IMG/VR virus record: IMGVR_UViG_2551306525_000002
Location: 1-27,590 of that record
Strand: one strand, 5' to 3'
DNA from: a virus
Lineage: Duplodnaviria > Heunggongvirae > Uroviricota > Caudoviricetes
DNA: 27,590 nt
Positions 2,239-24,035 of the stretch are shown here, piece after piece. Both the position numbers and the translations under genes were made by a program. The notes under the pieces are model-generated. The model was not told the origin of the DNA. It did no database searches and was given only the letters and a program-made list of their open reading frames with translations. Position 1 is the first letter of the stretch; each line of letters begins with the position of its first letter.

Positions 2239-3861
2239 CTATTTTCTCCTGAAGTTTAATAGCTTTATTATTAACCAAACCAAAACCATGGATGTGGCAA
2301 AGTAAATTGCATCTTCATAGCTTTTGAGTCCAGATTTCTTAATTAAAAGTGACAGGTTTAGTGTTTCAAATAATGGCTTTACTAAAATTGGGGATAATGA
2401 TGTCGATGCAATTAAACCAAAGGCCATTGTTATCTTCTTATTACTTTTGTCATTTAAGTCGGCATCAATTAATTTTAGCACTTGGATTCTTGACTTTATC
2501 AATTCAATGACGCTTTGACGAGCCCTTTTTATATCGATTGAATTTAATGTATTAAATGTGAAGTCTTGTATCTCTCCATACTTCCTTGAGAAAATCCTAA
2601 GCCACTCTTCAAATAAAAGGATGTCTTCTTGTATTTTGGCAAGGCCAAGATGGCTTTTTTCATTTCCAATTTTTTCTATTGTTGAATCATATGAAAAGGA
2701 AATGAAATCTCTAAGATCACTCTTAACCTGATTGTCCCACATCAGATTTTCTTCTGTATATGTCCCGGTAAAAAATTCTTTTTTAACTTTACATGTAAGT
2801 ATAGTCAGTGCTAAAGACTGTTCAGAAAAAAAATTGAAATCATCAAAGGCACGATGATCAATGATTTTCTTGGTGTGCTTTATGTTTGTTAATAGGTGAT
2901 TTTTGCCCAGCAATGAATAAACTAACGACTTATTACTCTGAAAATTGTCAGTGGCATTGTTTTTTTGATTATCGTGCTCGAAGATATAGACGCTTGGCTT
3001 ACCTTGCCAGAAGTTATAAAACTCAGAAAGATTTCTGCCTAAAAGATAATCTTTAATTGTTCTTTTTTTTGTTTTGTCAAATATTATAGCAATCACATAT
3101 CTGGCGATGTCACTTAAATTATGCTGAATTTGCATTAAATTTGTGTAATCAATATATCTACCTGTAACCTTAAATTCACCAACCTCTAGATCTTCAGAGT
3201 TGTCGTTCAATAGTTTTAAACTCTTTTTAATACTACACTTCGCTATCAGTCTACTAAGTAGTGGCATTCCTGAATAGTCTAGCAGTAACGAACTCTTGGC
3301 GAACTCTATGCTGGTAGTAATCGAACTGTTTAGTTTTAAAGGTAGGTTTAAAATGTTTTTTATGAAATCATTCAAATCAACATTGCGTTCCTCAGTGTCA
3401 ACAAAGGTAACATGTGCTATCCCATTTTTATAGAGACGAATAATTGGATGAATAAAAAATTCCACATCGTTATTTTTTACTAGGATTGGCTTTTGACAAC
3501 ATATTATGTTTTCGTAATAATTATTACCTGATGTGTGAAAAAGCTTTCTTTCAGAGAGTCTAATGTTTATACACTGGGAAAAAGCCGTAGCAGTTAGGGC
3601 GCAAACACCTGACGCATGAATCTTATCACCGCCCTCAACAGTAACAGCATTTTCGTTGTTTTCATATCTCATGCTTATTTTTGTTGAGGATGGTGTGTTT
3701 TTTGATAAATATTTGAATGTGTTGTGTGGCGTTAGTATTGCAAGAAACAACCCTGTATTTATCAAGTCTGAACTAAATTTCTCGGCATCTTGATATTCTG
3801 GCGATTGTGTTGTGTATGTATGCCAAATTACGCCTCTTTGAATTTGCATATCACTACCCAT
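2239..3861 (-). CDS. AT-rich cargo protein of unknown function (540 aa), hydrophobic C-terminus; candidate phage-exclusion/defence gene at the tin/old locus
   Basis: Long uninterrupted ORF in a region visibly much more AT-rich than flanking phage genes. Lies between gene A and cos, where P2 carries tin and old, on the same leftward strand as those genes. No Walker A motif, so not an Old-type ATPase. Two hydrophobic segments near the C-terminus (AFGLIASTSLSPILV, ATSMVLVWLIIKLL). True start may be M1 (3861) or M5 (3849). Confidence 0.75.
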   Translation of the reverse strand: MGSDMQIQRGVIWHTYTTQSPEYQDAEKFSSDLINTGLFLAILTPHNTFKYLSKNTPSSTKISMRYENNENAVTVEGGDKIHASGVCALTATAFSQCINIRLSERKLFHTSGNNYYENIICCQKPILVKNNDVEFFIHPIIRLYKNGIAHVTFVDTEERNVDLNDFIKNILNLPLKLNSSITTSIEFAKSSLLLDYSGMPLLSRLIAKCSIKKSLKLLNDNSEDLEVGEFKVTGRYIDYTNLMQIQHNLSDIARYVIAIIFDKTKKRTIKDYLLGRNLSEFYNFWQGKPSVYIFEHDNQKNNATDNFQSNKSLVYSLLGKNHLLTNIKHTKKIIDHRAFDDFNFFSEQSLALTILTCKVKKEFFTGTYTEENLMWDNQVKSDLRDFISFSYDSTIEKIGNEKSHLGLAKIQEDILLFEEWLRIFSRKYGEIQDFTFNTLNSIDIKRARQSVIELIKSRIQVLKLIDADLNDKSNKKITMAFGLIASTSLSPILVKPLFETLNLSLLIKKSGLKSYEDAIYFATSMVLVWLIIKLLNFRRK

Positions 3862-4314: not shown

Positions 4315-4333
4315 GGCGAGGCGGGGAAAGCAC
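4315..4333. other. cos: cos site core: 19-nt sequence GGCGAGGCGGGGAAAGCAC matching the P2 cohesive end
   Basis: Exact 19-mer as I recall the P2 cohesive end, located just downstream of portal gene Q as in P2. Confidence 0.6.
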
Positions 4334-4475
4334 TGCGCGCTGGCGGTGGTGCTGATTTTATTTTTTCAGCGTCTCAGCGCGTCGTGACGGCGTTTGGATT
4401 GTGCGCCGGGGCGTTGGTGTGTCTGCGGGGTGTTTTGTGCGGTGGTGAGCGTGTGAGGGCGTGATGACGGGGTGT

Positions 4476-4497
4476 AAAAAAGCCGCCCGCAGGCGGC
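4476..4497 (-). terminator. Rho-independent terminator for the leftward P-Q operon
   Basis: On the minus strand: GCCGCC-TGCG-GGCGGC hairpin followed immediately by TTTTTT, starting 6 nt after the Q stop codon. Confidence 0.7.
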
Positions 4498-4502
4498 GAT
4501 GT

Positions 4503-5537
4503 TCAGCCGTTGTCGGTGTCCAGTGAGTAGTTTTTAAAGCGGATGACCTCCTGACCGAGCCAGCCGTTTATCTCGCGGATCCTGTCCTGTAACGGGATAA
4601 GCTCATTGCGGACAAAGACCTTTGCCACTTTCTCAATATCACCCAGCGACCCGACGTTCTCCGGCTTGCCGCCCATCAACTGAAAAGGGATGCGGTGCGC
4701 GTCCAGCAGGTCTGCGGCGCTGGCTTTTTTGATATTAAAAAAATCGTCCTTCGTTGCCACTTCACTGAGCGGGATAATTTTAATGCCGTCGGCTTTCCCT
4801 TGCGGGGCATAGAGAAACAGATTTTTAAAGTTGTTGCGGCCTTTCGACTTCACCATGTTTTCGCGGAGCATTTCGATATCGTTGCGATCCTGCACGGCAT
4901 CAGTGACGTACATGATGTATCCGGCATGTGCGCCGTTTTCGTAATACTTGCGGCGGAACAGCGTGGCCGACTCATTCAGCCAGGCAGAGTTAAGGGCGCT
5001 GAGATATTCCGGCAGGCCGTACAGCTCCTGATTAATATCCGGCTCCAGCAGGTGAAACACGGAGCCGGGCGCGAAGGCTGTCGGCTCGTTGAAGGACGGC
5101 ACCCACCAGTAAACATCCTCTTCCACGCCACGGCGGGTATATTTTGCCGGTGAGGTTTCCAGTCTGATGACCTTACCGGTGGTGCTGTAACGCTTTTCCA
5201 GAAACGCATTACCGAACACCAGAAAATCCAGCACAAAACGGCTGAAATCCTGCTGGGAAAGCCACGGGTGCGGGATAAACGTTGAAGCCAGAATATTACG
5301 TTTGACGTAAATCGGTGAGCTGTGATGCACGGCAGCACGCAGGCTTTTTGCCAGACCGGTAAAGCTGACCGGCGGCTCATACCATCTGCCGTTACTGATG
5401 CACTCGACGTAATCCAGAATGTCACGGCGGTCGAGTACCGGCACCGGTTCGCCAAAGGTGAATGCCTCCATTTTCGGGGCGCTGGCGGTCATTTTTTTTG
5501 CCGCAGGTTGCAGTGTTTTCCCATTTTTCTTGCTCAT
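4503..5537 (-). CDS. Q: Portal protein gpQ (344 aa)
   Basis: Length identical to P2 gpQ and sequence recognised as P2-type portal. Start ATG overlaps the P stop (ATGA). Confidence 0.9.
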   Translation of the reverse strand: MSKKNGKTLQPAAKKMTASAPKMEAFTFGEPVPVLDRRDILDYVECISNGRWYEPPVSFTGLAKSLRAAVHHSSPIYVKRNILASTFIPHPWLSQQDFSRFVLDFLVFGNAFLEKRYSTTGKVIRLETSPAKYTRRGVEEDVYWWVPSFNEPTAFAPGSVFHLLEPDINQELYGLPEYLSALNSAWLNESATLFRRKYYENGAHAGYIMYVTDAVQDRNDIEMLRENMVKSKGRNNFKNLFLYAPQGKADGIKIIPLSEVATKDDFFNIKKASAADLLDAHRIPFQLMGGKPENVGSLGDIEKVAKVFVRNELIPLQDRIREINGWLGQEVIRFKNYSLDTDNG

Positions 5538-7309
5538 CAGTAAAACTCCAGAATGGTGGATGTCAGCGGGGTGCTGATACCGGCGGTGAGTGGCTCATTT
5601 AACAGGGCGTGCATGGTCGCCCAGGCGAGGTCGGCGTGGCTGGCTTCCTCGCTGCGGCTGGCCTCATAGGTGGCGCTGCGTCCGCTGCTGGTCATGGTCT
5701 TGCGGATAGCCATAAACGAGCTGGTGATGTCGGTGGCGCTGACGTCATATTCCAGACAGCCACGGCGAATAACGTCTTTTGCCTTGAGCACCATTGCGGT
5801 TTTCATTTCCGGCGTGTAGCGGATATCGCGCGCGGCGGGATAGAACGAGCGCACGAGCTGGAACACGCCGACACCGAGGCCGGTGGCATCAATACCGATG
5901 TATTCGACGTTGTATTTTTCGGTGAGTTTGCGGATGGATTCCGCCTGAGTGGCAAAGTCCATGCCTTTCCACTGGTGACGCTCAAGTATTCTGAATTTGC
6001 CACCGGCCACCACCGGCGGTGCCAGCACCACGCATCCGGCGCTGTCGCCACGGTGTGACGGGTCGTAACCAATCCATACCGGGCGGGAGCCGAACGGATT
6101 GGCGGCAAACGGCGCATAGTCTTCCCATTCTTCCAGCGTGTCGACCATGCAGCGTTGCAGCTCCTCAAACGGGAACACCGACGCCTTGTCGTCAACAAAT
6201 TCACACATGAACAGGTTTTTAAAATCGTCGGCGCTGTTTTCGCGTTTGAGCTGCTCAATGTCGAACAGCGTGCAGCCGCCTTTCAGGGCGTCCTCAATGG
6301 TGACAATCTGCCGCCACTGGCCGTCCGCACAGAGAAGACCTCCGGCAAGGGCGTTATGACTGACGTCGATTTCCACGCGTTCGGCGGCGCTGGCGCGTCC
6401 CCGGTTAAACAGTTCACCCGACCAGAACGGGTAGGCGTCGTGCGCCAGCGTGGACGGGGTGGAGAAATAGGTCGAGCGCAGGTGGCTCTGTGAGGCCATA
6501 CCTGATGCCACCTTACGCAGTACCTGAAAATTCGGGATCCAGAAAATCTCGTCGACGTACAGGTCGCCGTTATGGCTCTGCGCGGTGTTGGAGTTGGTGC
6601 CGAGAAAAATCAGTTTTGCGCCGTTATTGCCCAGGACAATCGGGTCACCGGTCAGGTCAACGTCAACCAGACGGGCAAAGGCGATGATGTATTCGCGGAA
6701 CACATACGCCTGCGTTTTACTGGCCGACAGAAAAATCTGGTTATGGCCGGTTTTCAGGGCGCGCAGCAGCGCCTCGCGGGAAAAATAAAACGTTGCGCCA
6801 ATCTGGCGGGATTTCAGGATATCGCGGATGCGGTGCTCAAGCCCGGCGCGATACCAGTGCAACTGATATTCGAAAGACTGCTCAAAGAAAATCTGCTCCA
6901 GCTTTTCGATGGCCTCGTCACTGAAAAAATTCTTTTTCGGTTTGCGCCGCCCGCCTTTGTTGCGGTTAGCGACGTTCGGATTAAGGTCTGCCTCGTTGCC
7001 GGTCTGGCTGTAGCGGTTTACCCGTGCCAGTCGTTCAATCTGGCGTCCGAGCAGGTCAATTTCCTTGAAGTCACCGCCGGTTTTCTGCGGTTTGATGATG
7101 AGCTGGGTCAGCCGCGCTTCCAGGCTCATTTCGACACGGCTGATGGGGGCAACACTGTCCCAGCCGTCGCGCTGTTTCCAGCTCTGCACCGTCGGGCGTT
7201 TCATCTGCAACATGGCGGCAATCTGCGGCACGGAAAACCCCTGCCAGTACAGCAGCGCCGCCTGACGACGCGGGTCGTGTAAAAGAGTGGTGTCTGTGGT
7301 GATGGTCAT
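5537..7309 (-). CDS. P: Terminase large (ATPase) subunit gpP (590 aa)
   Basis: ORF track gives 600 aa from an upstream start; the ATG at 7309 (MTITTDTTLL...) with a GAGGT Shine-Dalgarno 5 nt upstream gives the P2 length of 590 aa. Divergent from O as in P2. Confidence 0.88.
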   Translation of the reverse strand: MTITTDTTLLHDPRRQAALLYWQGFSVPQIAAMLQMKRPTVQSWKQRDGWDSVAPISRVEMSLEARLTQLIIKPQKTGGDFKEIDLLGRQIERLARVNRYSQTGNEADLNPNVANRNKGGRRKPKKNFFSDEAIEKLEQIFFEQSFEYQLHWYRAGLEHRIRDILKSRQIGATFYFSREALLRALKTGHNQIFLSASKTQAYVFREYIIAFARLVDVDLTGDPIVLGNNGAKLIFLGTNSNTAQSHNGDLYVDEIFWIPNFQVLRKVASGMASQSHLRSTYFSTPSTLAHDAYPFWSGELFNRGRASAAERVEIDVSHNALAGGLLCADGQWRQIVTIEDALKGGCTLFDIEQLKRENSADDFKNLFMCEFVDDKASVFPFEELQRCMVDTLEEWEDYAPFAANPFGSRPVWIGYDPSHRGDSAGCVVLAPPVVAGGKFRILERHQWKGMDFATQAESIRKLTEKYNVEYIGIDATGLGVGVFQLVRSFYPAARDIRYTPEMKTAMVLKAKDVIRRGCLEYDVSATDITSSFMAIRKTMTSSGRSATYEASRSEEASHADLAWATMHALLNEPLTAGISTPLTSTILEFY

Positions 7310-16646: not shown

Positions 16647-18869
16647 ATGAGCACAAAATTCAGAACCGTTATCACCACTGCTGGTGCAGCAAAGCTGGCA
16701 GCGGCAACCGCGCCGGGAGGGCGGAAGGTCAACATTACCACGATGGCCGTCGGGGATGGCGGTGGTAAATTGCCTGTCCCGGATGCCGGACAGACCGGGC
16801 TTATCCACGAAGTCTGGCGACATGCGCTGAACAAAATCAGCCAGGACAAACGAAACAGTAATTATATTATCGCAGAGCTGGTTATTCCGCCGGAGGTGGG
16901 CGGTTTCTGGATGCGTGAGCTTGGCCTGTACGATGATGCTGGAACGTTAATTGCCGTGGCGAACATGGCTGAAAGTTATAAGCCAGCTCTTGCCGAAGGC
17001 TCAGGGCGTTCGCAGACCTGCCGCATGGTCATCATCGTCAGCAGTGTGGCCTCAGTGGCGCTGACCATTGACACCACAACGGTGATGGCAACGCAGGATT
17101 ACGTTGATGACAAAATTGCAGAACATGAACAGTCACGACGTCACCCGGACGCCTCGCTGACCGCCAAAGGTTTTACTCAGTTAAGCAGTGCGACCAACAG
17201 CACGTCTGAAACACTCGCCGCAACACCAAAAGCGGTAAAAGCAGCATATGACCTTGCTAACGGGAAATACACTGCACAGGACGCCACCACAGCGCGAAAA
17301 GGCCTTGTCCAGCTCAGTAGTGCCACCAACAGCACGTCTGAAACGCTCGCCGCAACACCAAAAGCGGTAAAAGCAGCATATGACCTTGCTAACGGGAAAT
17401 ACACTGCACAGGACGCCACCACCGCGCGAAAAGGCCTTGTCCAGCTCAGTAGCGCCACCAACAGCGATTCTGAAACGCTTGCGGCAACGCCAAAGGCGGT
17501 TAAGACAGCGTATGACCTTGCTAACGGGAAATACACTGCACAGGATGCCACCACAGCGCGAAAAGGTCTTGTCCAGCTCAGTAGCGCCACCAACAGTGAT
17601 TCTGAAACGCTGGCTGCAACACCAAAAGCGGTGAAGTCTGCCTATGACAATGCTGAAAAACGTCTTCAGAAAGATCAGAACGGTGCGGATATTCCTGATA
17701 AAGGACGTTTCCTGAGTAACATTAATGTTTACAGCAAAGGTGAAGTGGATAAGAAAAAGGGAATGCGAAAGTATTCGTTTGCAGCCCCTGCAAATGTCGT
17801 TGCCGGGAAGTGGTATCCCGTTATCTTTCGCCGTGCTGCCAGCCTTTCAGGAGAAATGGCATCCCGCGTCGTTATTTCAACTGGTTGTTATAACGGCGAT
17901 TATGTAATGAATAACTGCGAGTTTAATGGCATGGTTATGCCCGGAGGCTGGACCGATCGTGGTTCATATGCGGCAGGTTATTTCTGGACGTATCAGACTA
18001 ATGAGCGTTCAATCCATTCCATTGTTACAAGCCTGAAAGATGATGATGTATGTAGTGTTTTTTATGTTGAAGCCAGAGCTTTCCCAGTACAAATTCTTGC
18101 AGAGGAAGGGCTAACGGTTATTGTTCCGACAGAGGATTATGTCGTCGGTCAGACGACATATAAGTGGGGGGCAACTAATCCCGCTACAGAAAGCACGAAC
18201 GTACAGGCTATTCTGGATTTTAAAAATGGACGTGGTTATTACTGTTCACATCCATTTATTTCCAGCCTTTCAGGAAATGCTGCAACAGCCTCAAAACTCG
18301 AAACACCGAGGAAAATAGCAGGTGTTGCCTTTGATGGTTCTGGAGATATTACCCTTAATGCCAGAAATGTCGGTGCATTTGCACTTCGGCAGACAGGTAA
18401 TACGGTTAATGGTGATACAGCCGTTGGATGGAATTGGGACAGTGGCGCATACAACGCTCTGATTGGGGGAGCATCTGCATTAATTCTTCACTTTAATATA
18501 AATGCTGGTAGCTGCCCGGCTGTACAGTTTCGTGTGAATTATAAAAATGGCGGTATATCTTACAGGTCAGCCCGTGATGGTTATGGTTTTGAATCTGGCT
18601 GGTCTGATTTCTATACCACAACACGAAAACCATCAGCGGGAGATGTTGGTGCATACACCAAAGCTGAATCAGATTCTCGCTATGTCCGGGATATTCGCCT
18701 GGGCACTCGTGTTGTTCAGACTATGCAGAAAGGGGTTATGTATGAGAAAGCAGGGCACGTAATTACAGGGCTTGGTATTGTCGGTGAAGTCGATGGTGAT
18801 GACCCCGCAGTATTCAGACCGATACAAAAATACATCAATGGCACATGGTATAACGTCGCACAGGTGTAA
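16647..18869 (+). CDS. H: Tail fibre protein gpH (740 aa) with internal tandem fibre repeats and a divergent C-terminal receptor-binding region
   Basis: N-terminus MSTKFRTVITTAGAAKLAAA... is P2 gpH-like. Longer than P2 gpH (669 aa as I recall) because of the repeat array. The C-terminal third has lower GC than the N-terminal part. Confidence 0.87.
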   Translation: MSTKFRTVITTAGAAKLAAATAPGGRKVNITTMAVGDGGGKLPVPDAGQTGLIHEVWRHALNKISQDKRNSNYIIAELVIPPEVGGFWMRELGLYDDAGTLIAVANMAESYKPALAEGSGRSQTCRMVIIVSSVASVALTIDTTTVMATQDYVDDKIAEHEQSRRHPDASLTAKGFTQLSSATNSTSETLAATPKAVKAAYDLANGKYTAQDATTARKGLVQLSSATNSTSETLAATPKAVKAAYDLANGKYTAQDATTARKGLVQLSSATNSDSETLAATPKAVKTAYDLANGKYTAQDATTARKGLVQLSSATNSDSETLAATPKAVKSAYDNAEKRLQKDQNGADIPDKGRFLSNINVYSKGEVDKKKGMRKYSFAAPANVVAGKWYPVIFRRAASLSGEMASRVVISTGCYNGDYVMNNCEFNGMVMPGGWTDRGSYAAGYFWTYQTNERSIHSIVTSLKDDDVCSVFYVEARAFPVQILAEEGLTVIVPTEDYVVGQTTYKWGATNPATESTNVQAILDFKNGRGYYCSHPFISSLSGNAATASKLETPRKIAGVAFDGSGDITLNARNVGAFALRQTGNTVNGDTAVGWNWDSGAYNALIGGASALILHFNINAGSCPAVQFRVNYKNGGISYRSARDGYGFESGWSDFYTTTRKPSAGDVGAYTKAESDSRYVRDIRLGTRVVQTMQKGVMYEKAGHVITGLGIVGEVDGDDPAVFRPIQKYINGTWYNVAQV
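17181..17648 (+). repeat. 3.5 tandem copies of a 132-bp (44-codon) unit inside H, encoding LSSATNSTSETLAATPKAVKAAYDLANGKYTAQDATTARKGLVQ
   Basis: Units start at 17181, 17313, 17445 and 17577 (the last partial), near-identical at nucleotide level. Corresponds to the short repeat common in phage tail fibres. Confidence 0.88.
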
Positions 18870-18872
18870 TTT

Positions 18873-19400
18873 ATGCAGCATTTAAAAAATATTACTGCGG
18901 GTAATCCAAAAACTGTTGCTCAATATCAACTGACAAAAAATTTTGATGTTATCTGGTTATGGTCCGAAGACGGAAAAAACTGGTATGAGGAAGTAAGTAA
19001 TTTTCAGGAAGACACGATAAAGATTGTTTACGACGAGAATAATATAATTGTCGGCATCACCAGAGATGCTTCAACGCTTAACCCTGAAGGTTTTAGCGTT
19101 GTCGAGGTTCCTGATATTACCGCCAACCGACGTGCTGATGACTCAGGTAAATGGATGTTTAAGGATGGTGCCGTGATTAAGCGGATTTATACGGCAGACG
19201 AACAGCAACAACAGACAGAATCACAAAAGGCCGCGTTACTTTCCGAAGCGGAAAGCGTTATTCAGCCACTGGAGCGCGCTGTCAGGCTGAACATGGCAAC
19301 AGATGAGGAGCATAGCCGACTGGAAGCATGGGAACGCTACAGTGTTCTGGTCAGCCGTGTGGATCCTGCAAATCCCGAATGGCCGAAAATGCCACAATAA
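18873..19400 (+). CDS. G: Tail fibre assembly chaperone gpG (175 aa)
   Basis: Length identical to P2 gpG; immediately follows H. Confidence 0.87.
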
Positions 19401-19461
19401 GTTGTATGAGCTCTGGTGTGAGCTTACATATCTATGGCACAGAGTAAAGCCTGATCTGACA

Positions 19462-19485
19462 GTCCGCTCTGTGCCAAGAGCGGAC
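19462..19485. repeat. Palindromic boundary motif, copy 1: GTCCGCTC-(8 nt)-GAGCGGAC
   Basis: Perfect 8-bp inverted repeat about 60 bp after the G stop; 20 of 24 positions match the copy at 21608-21631. Confidence 0.6.
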
Positions 19486-19756
19486 CTTAGGCTTCAGTAA
19501 TTTGGTTAGCACAACCCCTTTGATAAACATACAGCTACAGTATTGCTTTTATAAGGAGCGTAGTTTCAATAGGACACCCCAAACGTTAGTCGGGAAAAGC
19601 CGACTGAAAAAAACTTGTGTGGACAAGTAGTGTCCATTTAATGCCATTTTTAGATTAAAATGTGCCATTTTGAGGGTATTCTTAAACGTGCATAACGTTC
19701 TGATTTATCATACACAGAGCCTTATCATTTGAAACCATTCCGATGTACATCAAACA

Positions 19757-21292
19757 ATGATTACAAGAGAAATTATGACACCGCCAACCAAAATTGATAC
19801 ATCAAGTCTACTTACCATATTGGGCGTTATTGCTGCTGTATGGGCCCTTATTACGCCAAACGCTCGACTACGTTTAAGGTTCTGCCTAGCGTGGTGGGAT
19901 TGGGTAATTGTTGGGTTTGCATTCTTACTAAGCAATTATTTGGTGTTTGCACCGGCTTTAAAATCACTAGACTTATATTTTAGCTTTGGCCCCTGGAAAT
20001 GGGGATTAGATAGTTCAAGTGCCGTATACCTGATATCACTCGCAGTTGCTATTTACATTTTATTTCGCTTAAAAAACCCTAAACTCTCAATTGGAAGAAC
20101 AGGGATATTTCTAGAGTTAGTGGAAAATTTGCACCTTACTAAACGATACGACGATCTGGCACAATTGTTGGCACCTCAACTAGAAAAATTAATATCAATA
20201 ATTGATAGACCTGTGAAGAATCGACTTTGTGATAAGATAGCTAACAATCTCCGCATCTCTAATCGCGAGACAGCTGCTGAACATGCACATGAAGCATTGT
20301 TAAATATTGTCTCATCACCTGAACTTACCAATCACTTTGCACTTGCGCACCCATCCCTCTGCCTTGAGTTAATCAAGATCGAGCCAATAGTTCGTTCTGA
20401 CTTTACTTCTAATTTTATCAGTGCATTACTTGGTTCACCTAACAGTCGTCTATATGTTGAGCTTAAAAATAATCTTAACGTTAGTCGAGGACATCGTTTA
20501 TTGATTCCAAAAAACAACCGTATATTACATTTTTTCTTTTCCAATGCTAAGTTTGCAGCTGATTTAGCAATATACCGTGATATCGGTGACTATCTCTACT
20601 GGAGGTTAGATGAAGATGAAAAAATTATTGCTGCACTTAATAAGTCTTTAGGTTCCTATTACGATGCTTCAAAATATAAATGTCCTATTTACTCAGGTGT
20701 CACGCTGTTTGAAATTATGGTTCATGAAGGTATTCACCAGGGTCTTCAGGATCATTTATGGTTGCATTACTATTCATATTTCGCAAGGAAAATTATAAAG
20801 AATATGAATAGGCAATCAGATGAATATAGTGGTGAATGGGAAACACCTTTTCACTTCCTTCTCTGTCATTTATTTAGCGTCGCTACAGATTGGGCAGAAC
20901 AATGCGAATGGATAGATGAAAAGGAGATTCCTCAAGAAAATAAAGAAATAGATAATTTCGATCTTCATTATATTTCAAAAGAGGCTACCAAATTACTTGG
21001 TGCTATGCTGCAGTTGGTTATGCCTAATAAAAAACTCACCTTGAAATCTAGAAAGCATATTCTTGATATAGTTGTATCTTGTTATATTAGGTTGAAAAGG
21101 AATAAAAAATTAAAAGACGTCGCTGACTCATTATTAATTTTCACCACTAGAGGCGAAGGTAATTCAGCACCGCCGCATTATCGTAGAGAACTTCTAGAAA
21201 TATTCAATACCCTTGATGATTATCGATTAAGAACTGATGCCCCGGAATTCCGAGCAGCTATAGAGTCTGCTATTCAAGCAAGGCCGAATTAG
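19757..21292 (+). CDS. AT-rich cargo protein of unknown function (511 aa) with three predicted N-terminal transmembrane helices and a large soluble C-terminal domain; candidate defence/exclusion gene at the Z/fun locus
   Basis: Long ORF in a strongly AT-rich island between G and FI. Hydrophobic segments LLTILGVIAAVWALI, WWDWVIVGFAFLLSNYLVFAP and AVYLISLAVAIYILF. Start may be M7 (19775, purine-rich AAGAGAAA just upstream) rather than 19757. No family recognised. Confidence 0.75.
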   Translation: MITREIMTPPTKIDTSSLLTILGVIAAVWALITPNARLRLRFCLAWWDWVIVGFAFLLSNYLVFAPALKSLDLYFSFGPWKWGLDSSSAVYLISLAVAIYILFRLKNPKLSIGRTGIFLELVENLHLTKRYDDLAQLLAPQLEKLISIIDRPVKNRLCDKIANNLRISNRETAAEHAHEALLNIVSSPELTNHFALAHPSLCLELIKIEPIVRSDFTSNFISALLGSPNSRLYVELKNNLNVSRGHRLLIPKNNRILHFFFSNAKFAADLAIYRDIGDYLYWRLDEDEKIIAALNKSLGSYYDASKYKCPIYSGVTLFEIMVHEGIHQGLQDHLWLHYYSYFARKIIKNMNRQSDEYSGEWETPFHFLLCHLFSVATDWAEQCEWIDEKEIPQENKEIDNFDLHYISKEATKLLGAMLQLVMPNKKLTLKSRKHILDIVVSCYIRLKRNKKLKDVADSLLIFTTRGEGNSAPPHYRRELLEIFNTLDDYRLRTDAPEFRAAIESAIQARPN

Positions 21293-21299
21293 GTAAATC

Positions 21300-21322
21300 A
21301 ACCACCTGCATAGCGGGTGGTT
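21300..21322 (+). terminator. Weak putative terminator hairpin after the 511-aa gene (AACCACC-(9 nt)-GGTGGTT followed by a short T stretch)
   Basis: 7-bp perfect stem starting 8 nt after the stop codon; only 3 T residues follow. Confidence 0.35.
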
Positions 21323-21565
21323 TAGACATAGACCTCTAAGTATGCCTGAAAGCAGAGGTACCTCTAAGTTTCGATGTCTAGGTGTTGATCGGCTGTAATC
21401 TGGTAACCAGGTCAAGCTTAAAATTTTCTCAACATAAACAAGTAGTATTTCAAATATTGAACCATACTGACTCCCCCACTTTTTATAAGATTATGGAAAT
21501 TTTTTGTACCAGTAAGTTCGAAAATTAGTGTTGTTCTCATCAGTCGTTATGAAAAATTTTGAACT

Positions 21566-21587
21566 TCCGCTCCTCGCTCACAGCGGA
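21566..21587. repeat. Palindromic boundary motif, copy 2: TCCGCT-(10 nt)-AGCGGA
   Basis: Inverted repeat related to copies at 19462, 21608 and 22628 (CTCGCTCACAGCGGAC here versus CTCGCTCAAAGCAGAC at 22636). Confidence 0.55.
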
Positions 21588-21607
21588 CCCTCAACTCAGC
21601 CAGCAAT

Positions 21608-21631
21608 GTCCGCTGCTTGCCAGGAGCGGAC
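21608..21631. repeat. Palindromic boundary motif, copy 3: GTCCGCT-(10 nt)-AGCGGAC
   Basis: 20 of 24 positions identical to copy 1; lies between the convergent 511-aa and 250-aa cargo genes. Confidence 0.6.
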
Positions 21632-21667
21632 GTAGTTTAATCTCTACTATGTTAATAAGTAATGATA

Positions 21668-22420
21668 TTAAATAAACTCATCATTAAGAAAGCCTGTTGA
21701 TAAAAAGTTCTGAATGTGAAGATAAAAAGAATAACGTGTATCTTCATTTTTTTTCTTCGATGTGTTGAGTTCCGGCTTGAGATTGTAAATAAGATGAGAC
21801 TCTATAAAGTCAAGTAATTCTATAGCTAATGATGTCGGACTAATCCAATCCAGTGAAATATAGTCTTTTCCATCATAAAACCATGGGGTGGCTCTATATA
21901 TCCTCTTTTTCATATTATTATATTTGGGATCTAGCAACTTTAAGGCAGCCGAGTGACCGCCAATAAACCTTTTGGAGTTAACGGTTTTTCCGACATAAAC
22001 AATGTGTTCATTGGTATCATCCATATCAGAGCATGATATTAAATAGATTGGTAATGAGGGTTTGGGAGGAATGCCGATTTTTTTTTCGATTATCACCCTC
22101 TCCTTTTCATGAATAAAAATGGGAAGCTTTCCATTAAATTCACTCTTCACATTCCCCAAGAATGAATCTGTATTTTTCCTAGCTTCATGCAGTCCGACCC
22201 AGTTAAGACTATTGACCTGATGGAGAGGACAGCATTCCTGTATTGATAACCAAGCCTCCCAATCACTTGATGGATTATCACTACAGTTTTGGCCCGAAAA
22301 TCTGTGTGAAAGGAATTTTCTCCCCTCGAACCAGGCTTGCAACGGAATATATATGTCTGAAGTGTTCTGCTCGACTTCAATTAATGGACTGTTAGTATCC
22401 AAATTTATGCCTCCTTTCAT
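21668..22420 (-). CDS. AT-rich cargo protein (250 aa) with a C-terminal GIY-YIG-like nuclease signature; candidate exclusion/defence nuclease at the Z/fun position
   Basis: Minus-strand ORF just upstream of FI, where P2 carries Z/fun in the same orientation. Residues ~124-213 read PIY-(13 aa)-HIVYVGKTVNSKRFIGGH...AIELLDFIESHLIYN, resembling the GIY / YVGK / R / H / E / N pattern of GIY-YIG nucleases (compare the I-TevI and UvrC N-terminal motifs as I recall them). The N-terminal ~110 aa are unassigned. Confidence 0.7.
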   Translation of the reverse strand: MKGGINLDTNSPLIEVEQNTSDIYIPLQAWFEGRKFLSHRFSGQNCSDNPSSDWEAWLSIQECCPLHQVNSLNWVGLHEARKNTDSFLGNVKSEFNGKLPIFIHEKERVIIEKKIGIPPKPSLPIYLISCSDMDDTNEHIVYVGKTVNSKRFIGGHSAALKLLDPKYNNMKKRIYRATPWFYDGKDYISLDWISPTSLAIELLDFIESHLIYNLKPELNTSKKKNEDTRYSFYLHIQNFLSTGFLNDEFI

Positions 22421-22627
22421 TAAGTATTTGCATAAAAATATCTAAAAATAAGAAATTCTTTAATTAAGATTATAAGTTAAATATAAGTACCAATGAAGCT
22501 TTGAATGATTTCGCATCAATAAATTAATTCTAACACAATACCATATAATAACGAAAAATGTCACTACTTGGTCGTTGAGGATATGACATTGCAATTAAAG
22601 AGAAAACCTTAACACACTATCTATAAC

Positions 22628-22651
22628 GTCCGTTTCTCGCTCAAAGCAGAC
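22628..22651. repeat. Degenerate copy 4 of the boundary motif (GTCCGTTTCTCGCTCAAAGCAGAC); hairpin no longer perfect
   Basis: 19 of 24 positions identical to copy 2 when aligned; located in the upstream region of the 250-aa minus-strand gene. Confidence 0.45.
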
Positions 22652-22719
22652 TGTCAGATTTGATAGCATTTGGGCTATGTAAATTGTCAGGCGGAAAATG
22701 AGTGAGTACAAATCAGGAC

Positions 22720-22750
22720 AGGCGGGCGAATTGTCCGCCTTTTCTTTATC
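22720..22750 (+). terminator. Putative plus-strand intrinsic terminator about 95 bp upstream of FI
   Basis: 8-bp stem (AGGCGGGC / GTCCGCCT, one G-U pair), 5-nt loop, followed by TTTCTTTATC. Confidence 0.4.
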
Positions 22751-22844
22751 TGTTGTTTCATCCCCTGACCAGCCAGGACAAATAGCATCTCATGCCCTGC
22801 ACAACTGAAAATACCACTCACCCATTAACCACGGAGTTAAACGG

Positions 22845-24035
22845 ATGAGTGACTATCATCACGGCGTGCAGGTGCTGGAGATTAACGAGGGCACCCGCGT
22901 CATTTCCACCGTATCCACGGCCATTGTCGGCATGGTCTGCACGGCCAGCGATGCGGATGCGGAAATCTTCCCCCTCAATAAACCGGTGCTGATTACCAAT
23001 GTGCAGAGCGCAATTGCAAAGGCCGGTAAAAAAGGCACGCTGGCGGCATCGTTGCAGGCCATCGCCGACCAGTCAAAACCGGTCACCGTTGTCGTGCGTG
23101 TGGAAGACGGCACCGGCGAAGACGAAGAAACGAAACTCGCGCAGACTGTTTCCAATATCATCGGAACCACCGACGAAAACGGTCAGTACACCGGACTGAA
23201 AGCCCTGCTGGCGGCGGAGTCGGTAACCGGTGTTAAACCGCGTATTCTCGGTGTGCCGGGGCTGGATACCAAAGAGGTGGCTGTTGCACTGGCATCCGTC
23301 TGTCAGAAGCTGCGCGCTTTCGGATATATCAGCGCATGGGGCTGTAAGACCATTTCCGAGGTGAAAGCCTACCGCCAGAATTTCAGCCAGCGTGAGCTGA
23401 TGGTCATCTGGCCGGATTTCCTCGCATGGGATACGGTCACCAGTACCACTGCCACCGCGTATGCCACCGCCCGTGCGCTGGGTCTGCGCGCTAAAATCGA
23501 CCAGGAGCAGGGCTGGCATAAAACGCTGTCCAACGTCGGGGTGAACGGTGTTACCGGCATCAGCGCCTCTGTATTCTGGGATTTGCAGGAGTCCGGCACC
23601 GATGCTGACCTGCTTAACGAGTCAGGCGTCACTACGCTGATTCGCCGCGACGGTTTCCGCTTCTGGGGTAACCGTACCTGCTCTGATGACCCGCTGTTTC
23701 TCTTTGAAAACTACACACGCACCGCGCAGGTGCTGGCCGACACGATGGCTGAGGCGCACATGTGGGCGGTGGACAAGCCCATCACCGCAACGCTGATTCG
23801 CGACATCGTTGACGGCATCAATGCCAAATTCCGTGAGCTGAAAACAAACGGCTATATCGTGGATGGCTCATGCTGGTTCAGCGAAGAATCCAACGATGCG
23901 GAAACCCTCAAGGCCGGAAAACTGTATATCGACTACGACTATACCCCGGTGCCTCCTCTTGAAAACCTGACCCTGCGCCAGCGTATTACCGATAAATACC
24001 TGGCGAATCTGGTCACCTCGGTTAACAGCAATTAA
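22845..24035 (+). CDS. FI: Tail sheath protein gpFI (396 aa)
   Basis: Length identical to P2 gpFI; sequence recognised as a contractile-tail sheath protein. Confidence 0.9.
   Translation: MSDYHHGVQVLEINEGTRVISTVSTAIVGMVCTASDADAEIFPLNKPVLITNVQSAIAKAGKKGTLAASLQAIADQSKPVTVVVRVEDGTGEDEETKLAQTVSNIIGTTDENGQYTGLKALLAAESVTGVKPRILGVPGLDTKEVAVALASVCQKLRAFGYISAWGCKTISEVKAYRQNFSQRELMVIWPDFLAWDTVTSTTATAYATARALGLRAKIDQEQGWHKTLSNVGVNGVTGISASVFWDLQESGTDADLLNESGVTTLIRRDGFRFWGNRTCSDDPLFLFENYTRTAQVLADTMAEAHMWAVDKPITATLIRDIVDGINAKFRELKTNGYIVDGSCWFSEESNDAETLKAGKLYIDYDYTPVPPLENLTLRQRITDKYLANLVTSVNSN

Follow-up and report, generated by a model that had tools for sequence, protein, structure and literature searches.

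A palindrome-bounded cassette in the Z/fun locus of a P2-like prophage carries an orphan membrane protein that is a candidate single-gene anti-phage factor

The fun locus is reported to be a second defence hotspot of P2, with three validated systems (PMC9519451; PMC13586616). A gene without an assigned role in such a hotspot is expected to act in defence, and cargo unrelated to defence, e.g., partition systems and toxins, is found there as well (PMC9122126). How hotspot cargo is exchanged between elements that themselves lack a mobilisation function for it has been presented as an open question (PMC13586616). The gene described here, gene 1, resembles the known P2 Z/fun cargo, i.e., Fun(Z) and the systems of Vassallo et al. 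2022, in its site between G and FI, in its AT-rich foreign DNA, in the L/R inverted-repeat boundaries and in being a single lysogen-expressed gene for a protein of about 500 aa. It differs from fun(Z) in its opposite orientation, and its protein differs from the Z/fun-locus systems of that study in having no match among the PADLOC models. PADLOC 2.0 probably covers PD-T4, PD-T7 and PD-lambda from Vassallo et al. 2022. PADLOC gave no match either to the 'HAD-hydrolase + TM protein' system of Rousset, which comes from the P4 hotspot and requires its hydrolase partner, or to other Rst, PD-T or PDC systems. With hhalign, the probability of a concealed relationship to Fun(Z) of P2 or to ORF1 of P2-EC30 was 0.2%, and this possibility was rejected.

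Lit, the cell-death peptidase of the e14 prophage (Peptidase_U49) and a membrane-associated HExxH exclusion protease, is likewise a prophage-borne, membrane-associated single-gene product, and the E. coli subfamily of the gene 1 protein resembles it locally in an HExxH(x4-5)H motif. The gene 1 protein differs from Lit in its larger size and its helical-repeat-like domain. Single-protein or membrane-helix-bearing effectors of abortive infection and defence, e.g., RexB and the membrane effectors of PMC9122126, have in common with it N-terminal membrane helices, which are the only plausible effector moiety of the gene 1 protein, and a location in mobile elements or defence islands. However, most of these effectors are of small size or act with a partner that senses or generates a signal, whereas the gene 1 protein has no conserved partner and joins its membrane helices to a large cytoplasmic domain in one chain.

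The window, i.e., the whole stretch of 27,590 nucleotides that was analysed, includes an island at approximately 19500-22800 with a GC content of 0.34-0.39 against 0.55-0.60 in the flanks, which are 88-93% identical to P2-like phages. The island lies between G (18873-19400, tail-fibre assembly; Caudo_TAP, E=2e-35) and FI (22845-24035; Phage_sheath_1, E=1e-33). These data bore out the Z/fun position and the AT-richness noted in a sequence-only reading, and they support a foreign origin of this DNA in the P2-like prophage. The cargo of the G-FI interval differs among P2, Wphi, 12474III, R18C, P2-EC30 and P2-EC53, and gene 1 is missing from P2 and from most P2-like phages, so that it is not a conserved part of the P2 tail operon. 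In the annotation of P2, the pF activator binding site and the transcription start of the F operon are situated immediately upstream of FI. The features of the island are collected in Table 1.

Table 1. Coordinates of the features of the island and of the gene 1 protein (positions in the window; residues numbered from M7)
Feature	Position	Strand	Remarks
Left (L-type) boundary palindrome, cassette 1	19454..19489	.	core GTCCGCTCTGTGCCAAGAGCGGAC at 19462-19485
Non-coding leader, probable promoter region, moves with cassette 1	19490..19774	+	in non-P2 loci, conserved at 99% along with the cassette
Cargo gene 1, orphan membrane protein, PHROG 13820	19775..21292	+	505 aa; 511-aa ORF from 19757
N-terminal membrane domain (predicted): TM1 aa 10-26, TM2 aa 39-62, TM3 aa 80-98	19802..20068	+	hydropathy; AlphaFold helices
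Predicted cytoplasmic all-alpha, helical-repeat-like domain, aa 99-505	20069..21289	+	
Most conserved block 1: S224-x2-Y227-x-E229-x3-N233 ... N248	20444..20518	+	E229 invariant, 126/126
Conserved block 2: F312-x2-M315 ... H327-x-W329-L330-x-Y332 ... E354	20708..20836	+	contains the subfamily-only HEGIH (H317-H321)
Right (R-type) boundary palindrome, cassette 1	21563..21588	.	TTCCGCTCCTCGCTCACAGCGGAC
L-type palindrome, opens cassette 2	21608..21633	.	GTCCGCTGCTTGCCAGGAGCGGAC
Cargo gene 2, 250 aa, PHROG 16890, separate cassette	21668..22420	-	sub-threshold GIY-YIG similarity
R-type palindrome, island end	22624..22659	.	inverted repeat of 19454-19489, 78% complementary
Terminator-like hairpin ahead of the pF promoter and FI, P2 backbone	22720..22740	+	

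Palindromic sites of the GTCCGCT-N10-AGCGGAC type were found at four positions (19462-19485, 21565-21588, 21608-21631 and 22628-22651), with seven observed strand-matches against 0.01 expected by chance. The palindromes that had earlier been noticed to bracket gene 1 are therefore present, and they are more extensive than claimed. The four sites divide the island into two cassettes, one with gene 1 and the other with a separate gene of 250 aa (gene 2), and the single cassette of the earlier reading had to be given up because gene 2 has its own palindrome pair. An L-type site is located about 60 bp past G also in P2, P2-EC30, P2-EC53, 12474III and R18C despite their different cargo, and the entries AJ512676 and AJ512682 carry it under the label 'left inverted repeat'. 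The R-type site of the island end has a counterpart of the same type in Wphi. Altogether, L/R sites were found in six other P2-like Z regions, and the present island has an internal R.L pair in addition.

Islands of non-P2 type contain the 2.1-kb unit of cassette 1 with 99% identity, and the breakpoints lie at the palindromes. Homology of the cassette to other genomes begins at 19455-19471; it stops at 21578-21593 with NDM6, Pectobacterium and locus L048, and the homology with Leclercia, covering both cassettes, stops at 22646. Every homology breakpoint in the NDM6, Leclercia, Pectobacterium and IMG/VR loci coincides with a palindrome, and the idea of a mobile cassette, originally suggested by the palindromes, now has strong support. 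Transfer between elements would take place via recombination at the flanking L/R palindromes. The exact palindrome-to-palindrome exchange between P2 prophages and unrelated islands provides a concrete and testable handle on the cargo-swap question of PMC13586616.

The open reading frame listing of the window contains the 511-aa frame of gene 1 at 19757..21292 (+). Translation probably begins at M7 (19775, 505 aa), because the alignment with PHROG 13820 begins at residue 7, the RefSeq annotation has 505 aa, the N-termini of the homologs align to M7, and a purine-rich stretch upstream was found only at the M7 ATG. The dN/dS ratio against five homologs was 0.10-0.20, which indicates purifying selection and thus a functional gene.

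Kyte-Doolittle analysis identified three hydrophobic segments, at residues ~16-34, ~42-66 and ~86-104 of the full open reading frame, and none downstream of the third one in the gene 1 protein. The AlphaFold model of the 505-aa protein was confident (pLDDT 84.5, pTM 0.78), and its helices 10-25, 40-57/64 and 80-100 (M7 numbering) match the hydrophobic segments; the two methods thus agree on the three N-terminal membrane helices and large soluble domain that had been read from the sequence. The net charges of the 126 family members (loop 1 +2.3, region after TM3 +3.5, N-terminus -0.3, loop 2 +0.5) follow the positive-inside rule with a predicted N-out/C-in topology, and because of these statistics the C-terminal domain of about 400 aa is placed in the cytoplasm. 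Hydropathy, the AlphaFold model and the positive-inside statistics all agree on this architecture, in which the TM1-TM2 loop with its RLRLR stretch is cytoplasmic, the TM2-TM3 loop is periplasmic, and a conserved Asp42 lies within TM2. All 63 aligned sequences of the close subfamily have D42. The sequence of the membrane domain is conserved throughout the family, suggesting that the domain is more than a passive anchor.

The gene 1 protein matched PHROG 13820 at full length (E=0, 1098.6 bits, residues 7-511 on profile positions 1-505 of 505); this PHROG has no annotated function, and the membership therefore gives the family a name and no explanation. Close homologs numbered 161, and the family as a whole comprises 835 clusters at 50% identity, nearly all members being full length with 500-600 aa. 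Sequence searches against Pfam, NCBIfam and PDB found nothing significant, and the BFVD structure search gave no match. These remote-homology and structure searches upheld the earlier view that the protein has no known domain, and they produced no match to a housekeeping or structural protein. The domain and fold searches revealed no effector or sensor domain of a known type. Structure comparison showed only a generic helical-repeat resemblance: identity to HEAT/ARM alpha-solenoids was 5-13% and the query-normalised TM-score at most 0.31 with a large rmsd, so that on the modelled structure the resemblance appears to be one of generic fold class and no evidence of homology. The HMMs of PADLOC 2.0 (PADLOC-DB 2.0) had no match to the protein at E<=1, and for 76 divergent relatives there was no matching model, the only hits being two stray ones at E~0.007-0.009. 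The protein is absent from the DefensePredictor supplementary tables that were searched, and its RefSeq accessions are not mentioned in the searchable literature. On these searches, the gene 1 family is a large, orphan and previously undescribed one.

Conservation in the soluble domain was concentrated in two blocks (Table 1). Across the 126 members, H327 was present in 123 and E354 in 116, and together with S224, Y227, E229, N233 and N248 these residues are predicted to form a conserved polar pocket. The earlier statement that the soluble domain has no recognisable motif held as regards known domains, but it overlooked a local HEGIH (HExxH), which is not family-wide.

The distribution of gene 1 is patchy, with 81 carriers among 5426 complete E. 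coli genomes, and the family extends over Gamma- and Betaproteobacteria, P2-like phages and Klebsiella phage-plasmids. In the ~110-kb phage-plasmids of Klebsiella three alleles were found, with about 75%, 72% and 51% identity. An E. coli allele of 93.7% identity is situated in a CP4-type island, with a restriction endonuclease gene about 1.6 kb off and a disrupted IS30 between the two. In P. aeruginosa, the flank MerR-ihfA-pheT-pheS-rplT, by which the cDHS1 defence hotspot is defined, is ~3 kb away from the homolog. The Xanthomonas homolog adjoins GajA (E=1e-176) and GajB (E=2e-266), i.e., Gabija, the Delftia homolog adjoins LmuB_C/MC3/CTD7 (Lamassu-type) and DUF3800 genes, and a Pseudomonas homolog adjoins a Ppl-like ATPase (E=1.5e-30). 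No recognisable defence neighbours were present among the genes scanned in the Cellvibrio, Burkholderia and Pandoraea contexts. As a plain tally, which carries no enrichment statistic, defence neighbours occur in roughly 4-5 of ~15 independent contexts. All-against-all clustering of the neighbours at 33 loci revealed no conserved partner gene; gene 1 is a stand-alone unit, with no neighbour family common to independent loci. DUF3800, considered as a partner, was linked to the family in one clade only.

The reading preferred here, to which a probability of about 0.5 is assigned, is that the gene 1 protein is a candidate single-gene factor of anti-phage (inter-element) conflict expressed from the lysogen. 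The hotspot location and the defence neighbours suggest, by guilt by association, that it may have a role in abortive infection or defence. It would be an inner-membrane protein and a stand-alone accessory cargo of the Z/fun defence hotspot. Its cytoplasmic helical domain would sense, via the polar pocket, a phage product or an infection cue at the inner membrane, and the membrane domain, with Asp42 of TM2 invariant in the close subfamily, would then perturb the membrane or block a membrane-dependent step, as a result of which the infection would be aborted or the incoming phage excluded. Both the division into sensor and effector and the outcome for the cell are putative assignments. Because the system would consist of a single gene without a recognisable effector domain, it could show how sensing in the cytoplasm is linked to the membrane in a hitherto unseen manner.

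The HEGIH motif prompted the idea of a Lit-like membrane-associated zinc metalloprotease, in which HEGIH(x5)H would cut a host or phage protein upon infection. HEGIHQGLQDH is indeed kept in the close subfamily (H317 in 60, E318 in 62, and H321 and H327 in all of the 63 sequences), and hhalign sets it against HEISHVVLQH of Lit. However, H-E-x-x-H occupies the aligned position in only 9 of the 126 divergent members, the hhalign probability against E. coli Lit was 0.16%, i.e., homology was not detectable, no peptidase family matched in Pfam, and no zincin fold, with an active-site helix against a beta-sheet, was seen in the structure comparison; the protease is effectively refuted at the family level and was left with next to no credence. 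Hardly more probable is a two-gene system in which the 505-aa protein would be the membrane sensor and the 250-aa product of gene 2 a GIY-YIG-like nuclease effector. Both genes are ~99% identical in P2-like prophages (six E. coli genomes; loci L045 and L046), they move together in the non-P2 Leclercia locus, and in one Enterobacter genome they are three locus tags apart. Nevertheless, a separate L/R palindrome pair flanks each of the genes, the two are convergent with a 375-bp gap, 75 of the 81 E. coli carriers of gene 1 have no gene 2, no such neighbour occurs at any of the distant homolog loci, and the GIY-YIG similarity (E=0.03 and 0.09) is under the Pfam cut-off. As an operon the pair was rejected, conserved co-occurrence and co-orientation being lacking.

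Superinfection exclusion, i.e., a block of DNA entry or of another membrane step at the inner membrane that does not kill the cell and is not triggered by a sensor, would be a form of defence other than abortive infection and would suit a membrane-anchored, prophage-borne protein with a conserved membrane domain, encoded by a single gene without an enzymatic domain. Exclusion genes of lysogenic conversion are classical P2 cargo, and Fun(Z) blocks T5 according to its annotation. Injection blockers known so far are usually small proteins, unlike the gene 1 protein, in which the biggest and best-conserved part is the 400-aa cytoplasmic domain with its invariant polar residues; also, members of the family often occur in defence islands of the chromosome at a distance from any prophage, and exclusion was judged improbable. 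A little more weight, although still well on the unlikely side, was given to a non-defence accessory gene (membrane stress, signalling, colonisation or element maintenance) hitch-hiking in variable regions. The protein has no homology to known defence proteins in PADLOC, non-defence cargo is found in hotspots as well (PMC9122126), some contexts have no defence neighbours, and the Pectobacterium copy is close to an Rhs toxin and an IS element in a generic variable region. Against this stand four independently defined defence contexts in Gamma- and Betaproteobacteria and the patchy, multi-allelic distribution typical of conflict genes.

Read jointly, the protein and its cassette might, as a tentative and rather unlikely proposition, represent a new class of single-polypeptide membrane-anchored immunity, in which an all-alpha cytoplasmic domain of a kind not seen before, with an invariant Glu/His/Ser/Asn pocket and a new sensing or catalytic activity, would be coupled directly to a three-helix membrane effector, together with integron-like L/R tandem cassettes that would shuttle such genes among phages of the P2 type, islands of the CP4 type and further elements. 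If the anti-phage role of gene 1 is validated, the family, with its 835 or more sequence clusters and at present no annotation in Pfam, in PADLOC or by structure, would gain a function and enter the defence-annotation tools.

Scans of the island for promoters and terminators showed no excess over the shuffled expectation, and the Rfam scan of the island for regulatory RNA gave no match. Sigma-70-like matches in the leader were weak, e.g., at 19729-19758. The leader, whose promoter role is putative, includes the direct repeats TGCCATTTTTAG and TGCCATTTTGAG at 19642-19653 and 19663-19674, with a spacing of 21 bp.

The 511-aa ORF of the sequence-only reading is present in the window, most likely with its true start at the second ATG (19775), which gives a protein of 505 aa. 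The PHROG 13820 profile matched the protein from residue 7 through the C-terminus (E=0), the N-termini of the homologs align with the Met at 19775, and identical copies are annotated as 505 aa in RefSeq. A purine-rich stretch lies upstream of this ATG and is absent before the first one (19757). Comparison with five homologs (72-95% amino-acid identity) gave dN/dS values of 0.10-0.20, and the gene is therefore considered functional. Its leader contains two direct repeats, TGCCATTTTTAG and TGCCATTTTGAG, spaced by 21 bp or two helical turns, which may form an operator or regulator-binding site. The surrounding island (about 19500-22800) has a GC content of 0.34-0.39 against 0.55-0.60 in the flanks and is bordered by G (tail-fibre assembly, Caudo_TAP) and FI (sheath). 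The flanking sequence shares 88-93% identity with P2, Wphi and further Peduovirus genomes, and all of this agrees with the proposed AT-rich Z/fun island.

Coordinates of the features in the window and, where named, in other loci carrying homologs
Feature	Position	Strand	Remark
505-aa gene (511-aa ORF)	19757..21292	+	cargo 1
250-aa gene (RefSeq 244 aa)	21668-22420	-	cargo 2; PHROG 16890; convergent with cargo 1
Leader repeat TGCCATTTTTAG	19642-19653
Leader repeat TGCCATTTTGAG	19663-19674
Palindromes, tandem array	19454-19489, 21563-21633, 22624-22659		L-cargo-R.L-cargo-R
Palindromes, locus L001	3008-3031, 5112-5135		same L- and R-type motif
Homology, E. coli NDM6	19455-21589
Homology, Pectobacterium	19471-21593
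Homology, IMG/VR locus L048	19470-21578
Homology, Leclercia	19459-22646		both cassettes; locus without P2 tail genes
DUF3800 gene, L005	9629-10966		convergent, 12-40 bp after homolog
DUF3800 gene, L022	9631-10911		as L005
DUF3800 gene, L033	9642-10781		as L005
Split gene, L043 (NCTC9022)	4326-5842		frameshift, 181 + 331 aa
Split gene, L021	2535-4069		frameshift, 181 + 331 aa
Replication gene A	22-1542
540-aa ORF	2239-3861	-	other AT-rich island, GC 0.32-0.39
Portal gene Q	4503-5537
Tail-fibre gene H	16647-18869		four tandem Phage_fiber_2 repeats at 17177-17634

The three N-terminal membrane helices were recovered both as hydrophobic peaks within the first ~105 residues, the only part with such peaks in the Kyte-Doolittle scan, and as helices 10-25, 40-57/64 and 80-100 of the AlphaFold model (residues counted from the Met at 19775). 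Over 126 family members, the net charge was -0.3 for the N-terminus, +2.3 for loop 1, +0.5 for loop 2 and +3.5 for the segment after TM3, and the positive-inside rule predicts an N-out/C-in topology, in which the large domain is cytoplasmic. Sequence conservation inside the membrane region (e.g. A21, the basic loop 1, Asp42 in TM2 and Y55) suggests that this region does more than anchor the protein.

The word-indexed search identified 161 homologs in Enterobacterales, Pseudomonas, Burkholderiales, Xanthomonas, Nitrosomonas and Thiobacillus, all labelled 'hypothetical' and none with a Pfam domain. The exhaustive profile search extended the family to 835 clusters at 50% identity (390 with E<=1e-30), nearly all of 500-600 aa and matching end to end. 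In line with the remark in the sequence-only reading that the soluble domain shows no recognised motif, no recognisable family was found: Pfam and PADLOC searches with the window protein and 76 divergent members gave no meaningful match, NCBIfam and PDB sequence-profile searches with the window protein were empty, and the sole family name is PHROG 13820, whose function is unannotated. The AlphaFold model, built from a 63-sequence alignment (pLDDT 84.5, pTM 0.78), is almost entirely helical. Foldseek gave a single PDB match at E<0.001 (TM-score 0.29) and the BFVD search none, and the modelled cytoplasmic domain is best described as alpha-solenoid-like, without a specific structural relative in these two databases. 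Residues conserved throughout the family, with their counts among the 126 members, were E229 (126), S224 (124), H327 (123), M315 (122), F312 (121), W373 (120), Y332 (119), W329 (117), E354 (116), N248 (108), Y227 (104) and N233 (103), a set that probably makes up a pocket for binding or catalysis.

Palindromes matching GTCCGCT-N10-AGCGGAC, slight variants included, were found at 19462, 21565, 21608 and 22628 (seven strand-matches, 0.01 expected). The left-boundary (L-type) palindromes have the loop ...TGCCA... and the right-boundary (R-type) ones ...CTCGCTCA..., and the outer pair forms an extended inverted repeat. Site types and positions thus give the island order L-cargo1-R.L-cargo2-R, an array resembling integrons in layout. 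The earlier claim that palindromes bracket the gene stood, with the amendment that the island holds two cassettes. An L-type site lies ~60 bp past G in P2, P2-EC30, P2-EC53, 12474III and R18C, each with different cargo, and Wphi has an R-type site at the closing end of the locus. The inverted repeats themselves are already known, being annotated as left and right in the P2-EC30 and P2-EC53 database records. The same palindromes bound identical cassettes in P2 prophages and CP4-type islands as well as in loci of Leclercia and Pectobacterium. Wherever homology to another genome breaks off, it does so at a palindrome, and the proposed mobile cassette is therefore well supported by the sequence comparisons.

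Among 5426 complete E. coli genomes, 81 carried the 505-aa gene, whose alleles fall into two groups (>=99% and ~94% identity); only six genomes had the whole two-cassette island in P2 context. All five further copies inspected were outside P2: four in integrative islands of CP4 type that carry inovirus-Gp2/YagK-type genes, one of these copies having a restriction endonuclease gene about 1.6 kb away, and the fifth, frameshifted, among unrelated genes in NCTC9022. The other split copy (L021) is on a contig of 6.5 kb that bears the label 'Bacillota bacterium MAG' and is probably mis-binned or a contaminant, since its sequence agrees to 99% with the E. coli cassette. Homologs were also encoded in 137 plasmid records, 115 of them from Klebsiella, for the most part non-mobilisable replicons of ~110 kb whose gene content is that of phage-plasmids. 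Compared with the window protein, the three alleles of the SSU5-like phage-plasmids of Klebsiella and E. coli (L014, L015, L017 and L018; plasmid matches H63-H75) had identities of about 75, 72 and 51%. In the loci inspected, the gene occupies one and the same stretch of backbone directly downstream of a small glutaredoxin gene, which suggests allele swapping at a phage-plasmid hotspot.

When the neighbouring genes of 33 loci were clustered, none proved to be a conserved partner; the 505-aa gene is a stand-alone unit. In P. aeruginosa (hundreds of contigs) the homolog lies ~3 kb from the MerR-ihfA-pheT-pheS-rplT flank, which defines the core defence hotspot cDHS1 (PMC10250203). The Xanthomonas hortorum homolog has GajA (E=1e-176), GajB (E=2e-266) and a gene of the DUF3800 type as its flanking genes, the Delftia homolog adjoins DUF3800 and a LmuB_C/MC3/CTD7 Lamassu-type cluster, Pseudomonas and Stutzerimonas homologs follow a Ppl-like ATPase, and in Duganella and Janthinobacterium an SNF2 helicase is the second gene upstream. 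Among the genes scanned in Cellvibrio, Burkholderia and Pandoraea nothing was recognisable. These repeatedly defence-related contexts amount to a suggestive association rather than a statistical enrichment. The DUF3800 gene next to the homolog in Delftia, Xanthomonas and Stutzerimonas diverges in step with it (80/80, 71/77 and 74/74% identity), weakly matches the PADLOC candidates PDC-M04A and PDC-S51, and might be either a partner specific to this clade or a cassette alongside.

From this context, the protein is best read as a single-gene factor in anti-phage defence or inter-element conflict. Judging from the architecture, the helical domain in the cytoplasm would act as the sensor of a phage product or of the infection state and the membrane domain would execute the response, leading to abortive infection through membrane perturbation or to exclusion at the membrane. 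The Z/fun locus was reported as a second P2 defence hotspot, with three validated systems (PMC9519451), and is noted again in PMC13586616, where six of eight randomly chosen unknown loci of the P4 hotspot were reported to be protective, which gives such cargo a high prior. A non-defence accessory role is unlikely, and pure superinfection exclusion is slightly less probable still. A two-gene system with the 250-aa neighbour is very improbable: cargo 2 accompanies cargo 1 in P2-like prophages and one non-P2 Leclercia locus, but each gene has its own L/R palindrome pair and the partner is missing in 75 of the 81 carriers. Cargo 2, with sub-threshold GIY-YIG similarity (Pfam E=0.03 and 0.09), may be an independent nuclease-type defence candidate.

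Lit of prophage e14 is a membrane-associated HExxH exclusion protease, and the close subfamily of the window protein carries a similar motif in FEIMVHEGIHQGLQDH (HExxH plus one further His); hhalign superposes the two motifs, at 0.16% probability. HExxH is kept in only 9 of the 126 members in the wide alignment, position H317 being mostly Ser, Thr or Leu and H321 being His in 55, and the model has no zincin fold. On these grounds a Lit-like protease was ruled out, with hardly any probability left to it.

The 505-aa protein is unrelated to Fun(Z), to the P2-EC30 cargo and to all PADLOC 2.0 contents, and is absent from the DefensePredictor supplements; its accessions are not mentioned in the searchable literature, though earlier validation may exist. 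As a kind, orphan cargo genes for membrane-anchored proteins in phage defence hotspots are well known, and an unknown defence-like gene at Z/fun would not surprise a specialist; the family is new to annotation. The gene is a solid validation candidate with a large uncharted family behind it.

The 540-aa ORF sits between genes A and Q, an interval that is the classical old/tin defence hotspot, and had no Pfam or PADLOC match, which makes it the second orphan among the hotspot cargo of this prophage. The Phage_fiber_2 repeats of gene H create long repetitive shadow ORFs on both strands. Both cassettes recur in locus L045, where the H/G pair is divergent (85 and 75% identity), and the tail-fibre module and the cargo therefore assort independently.
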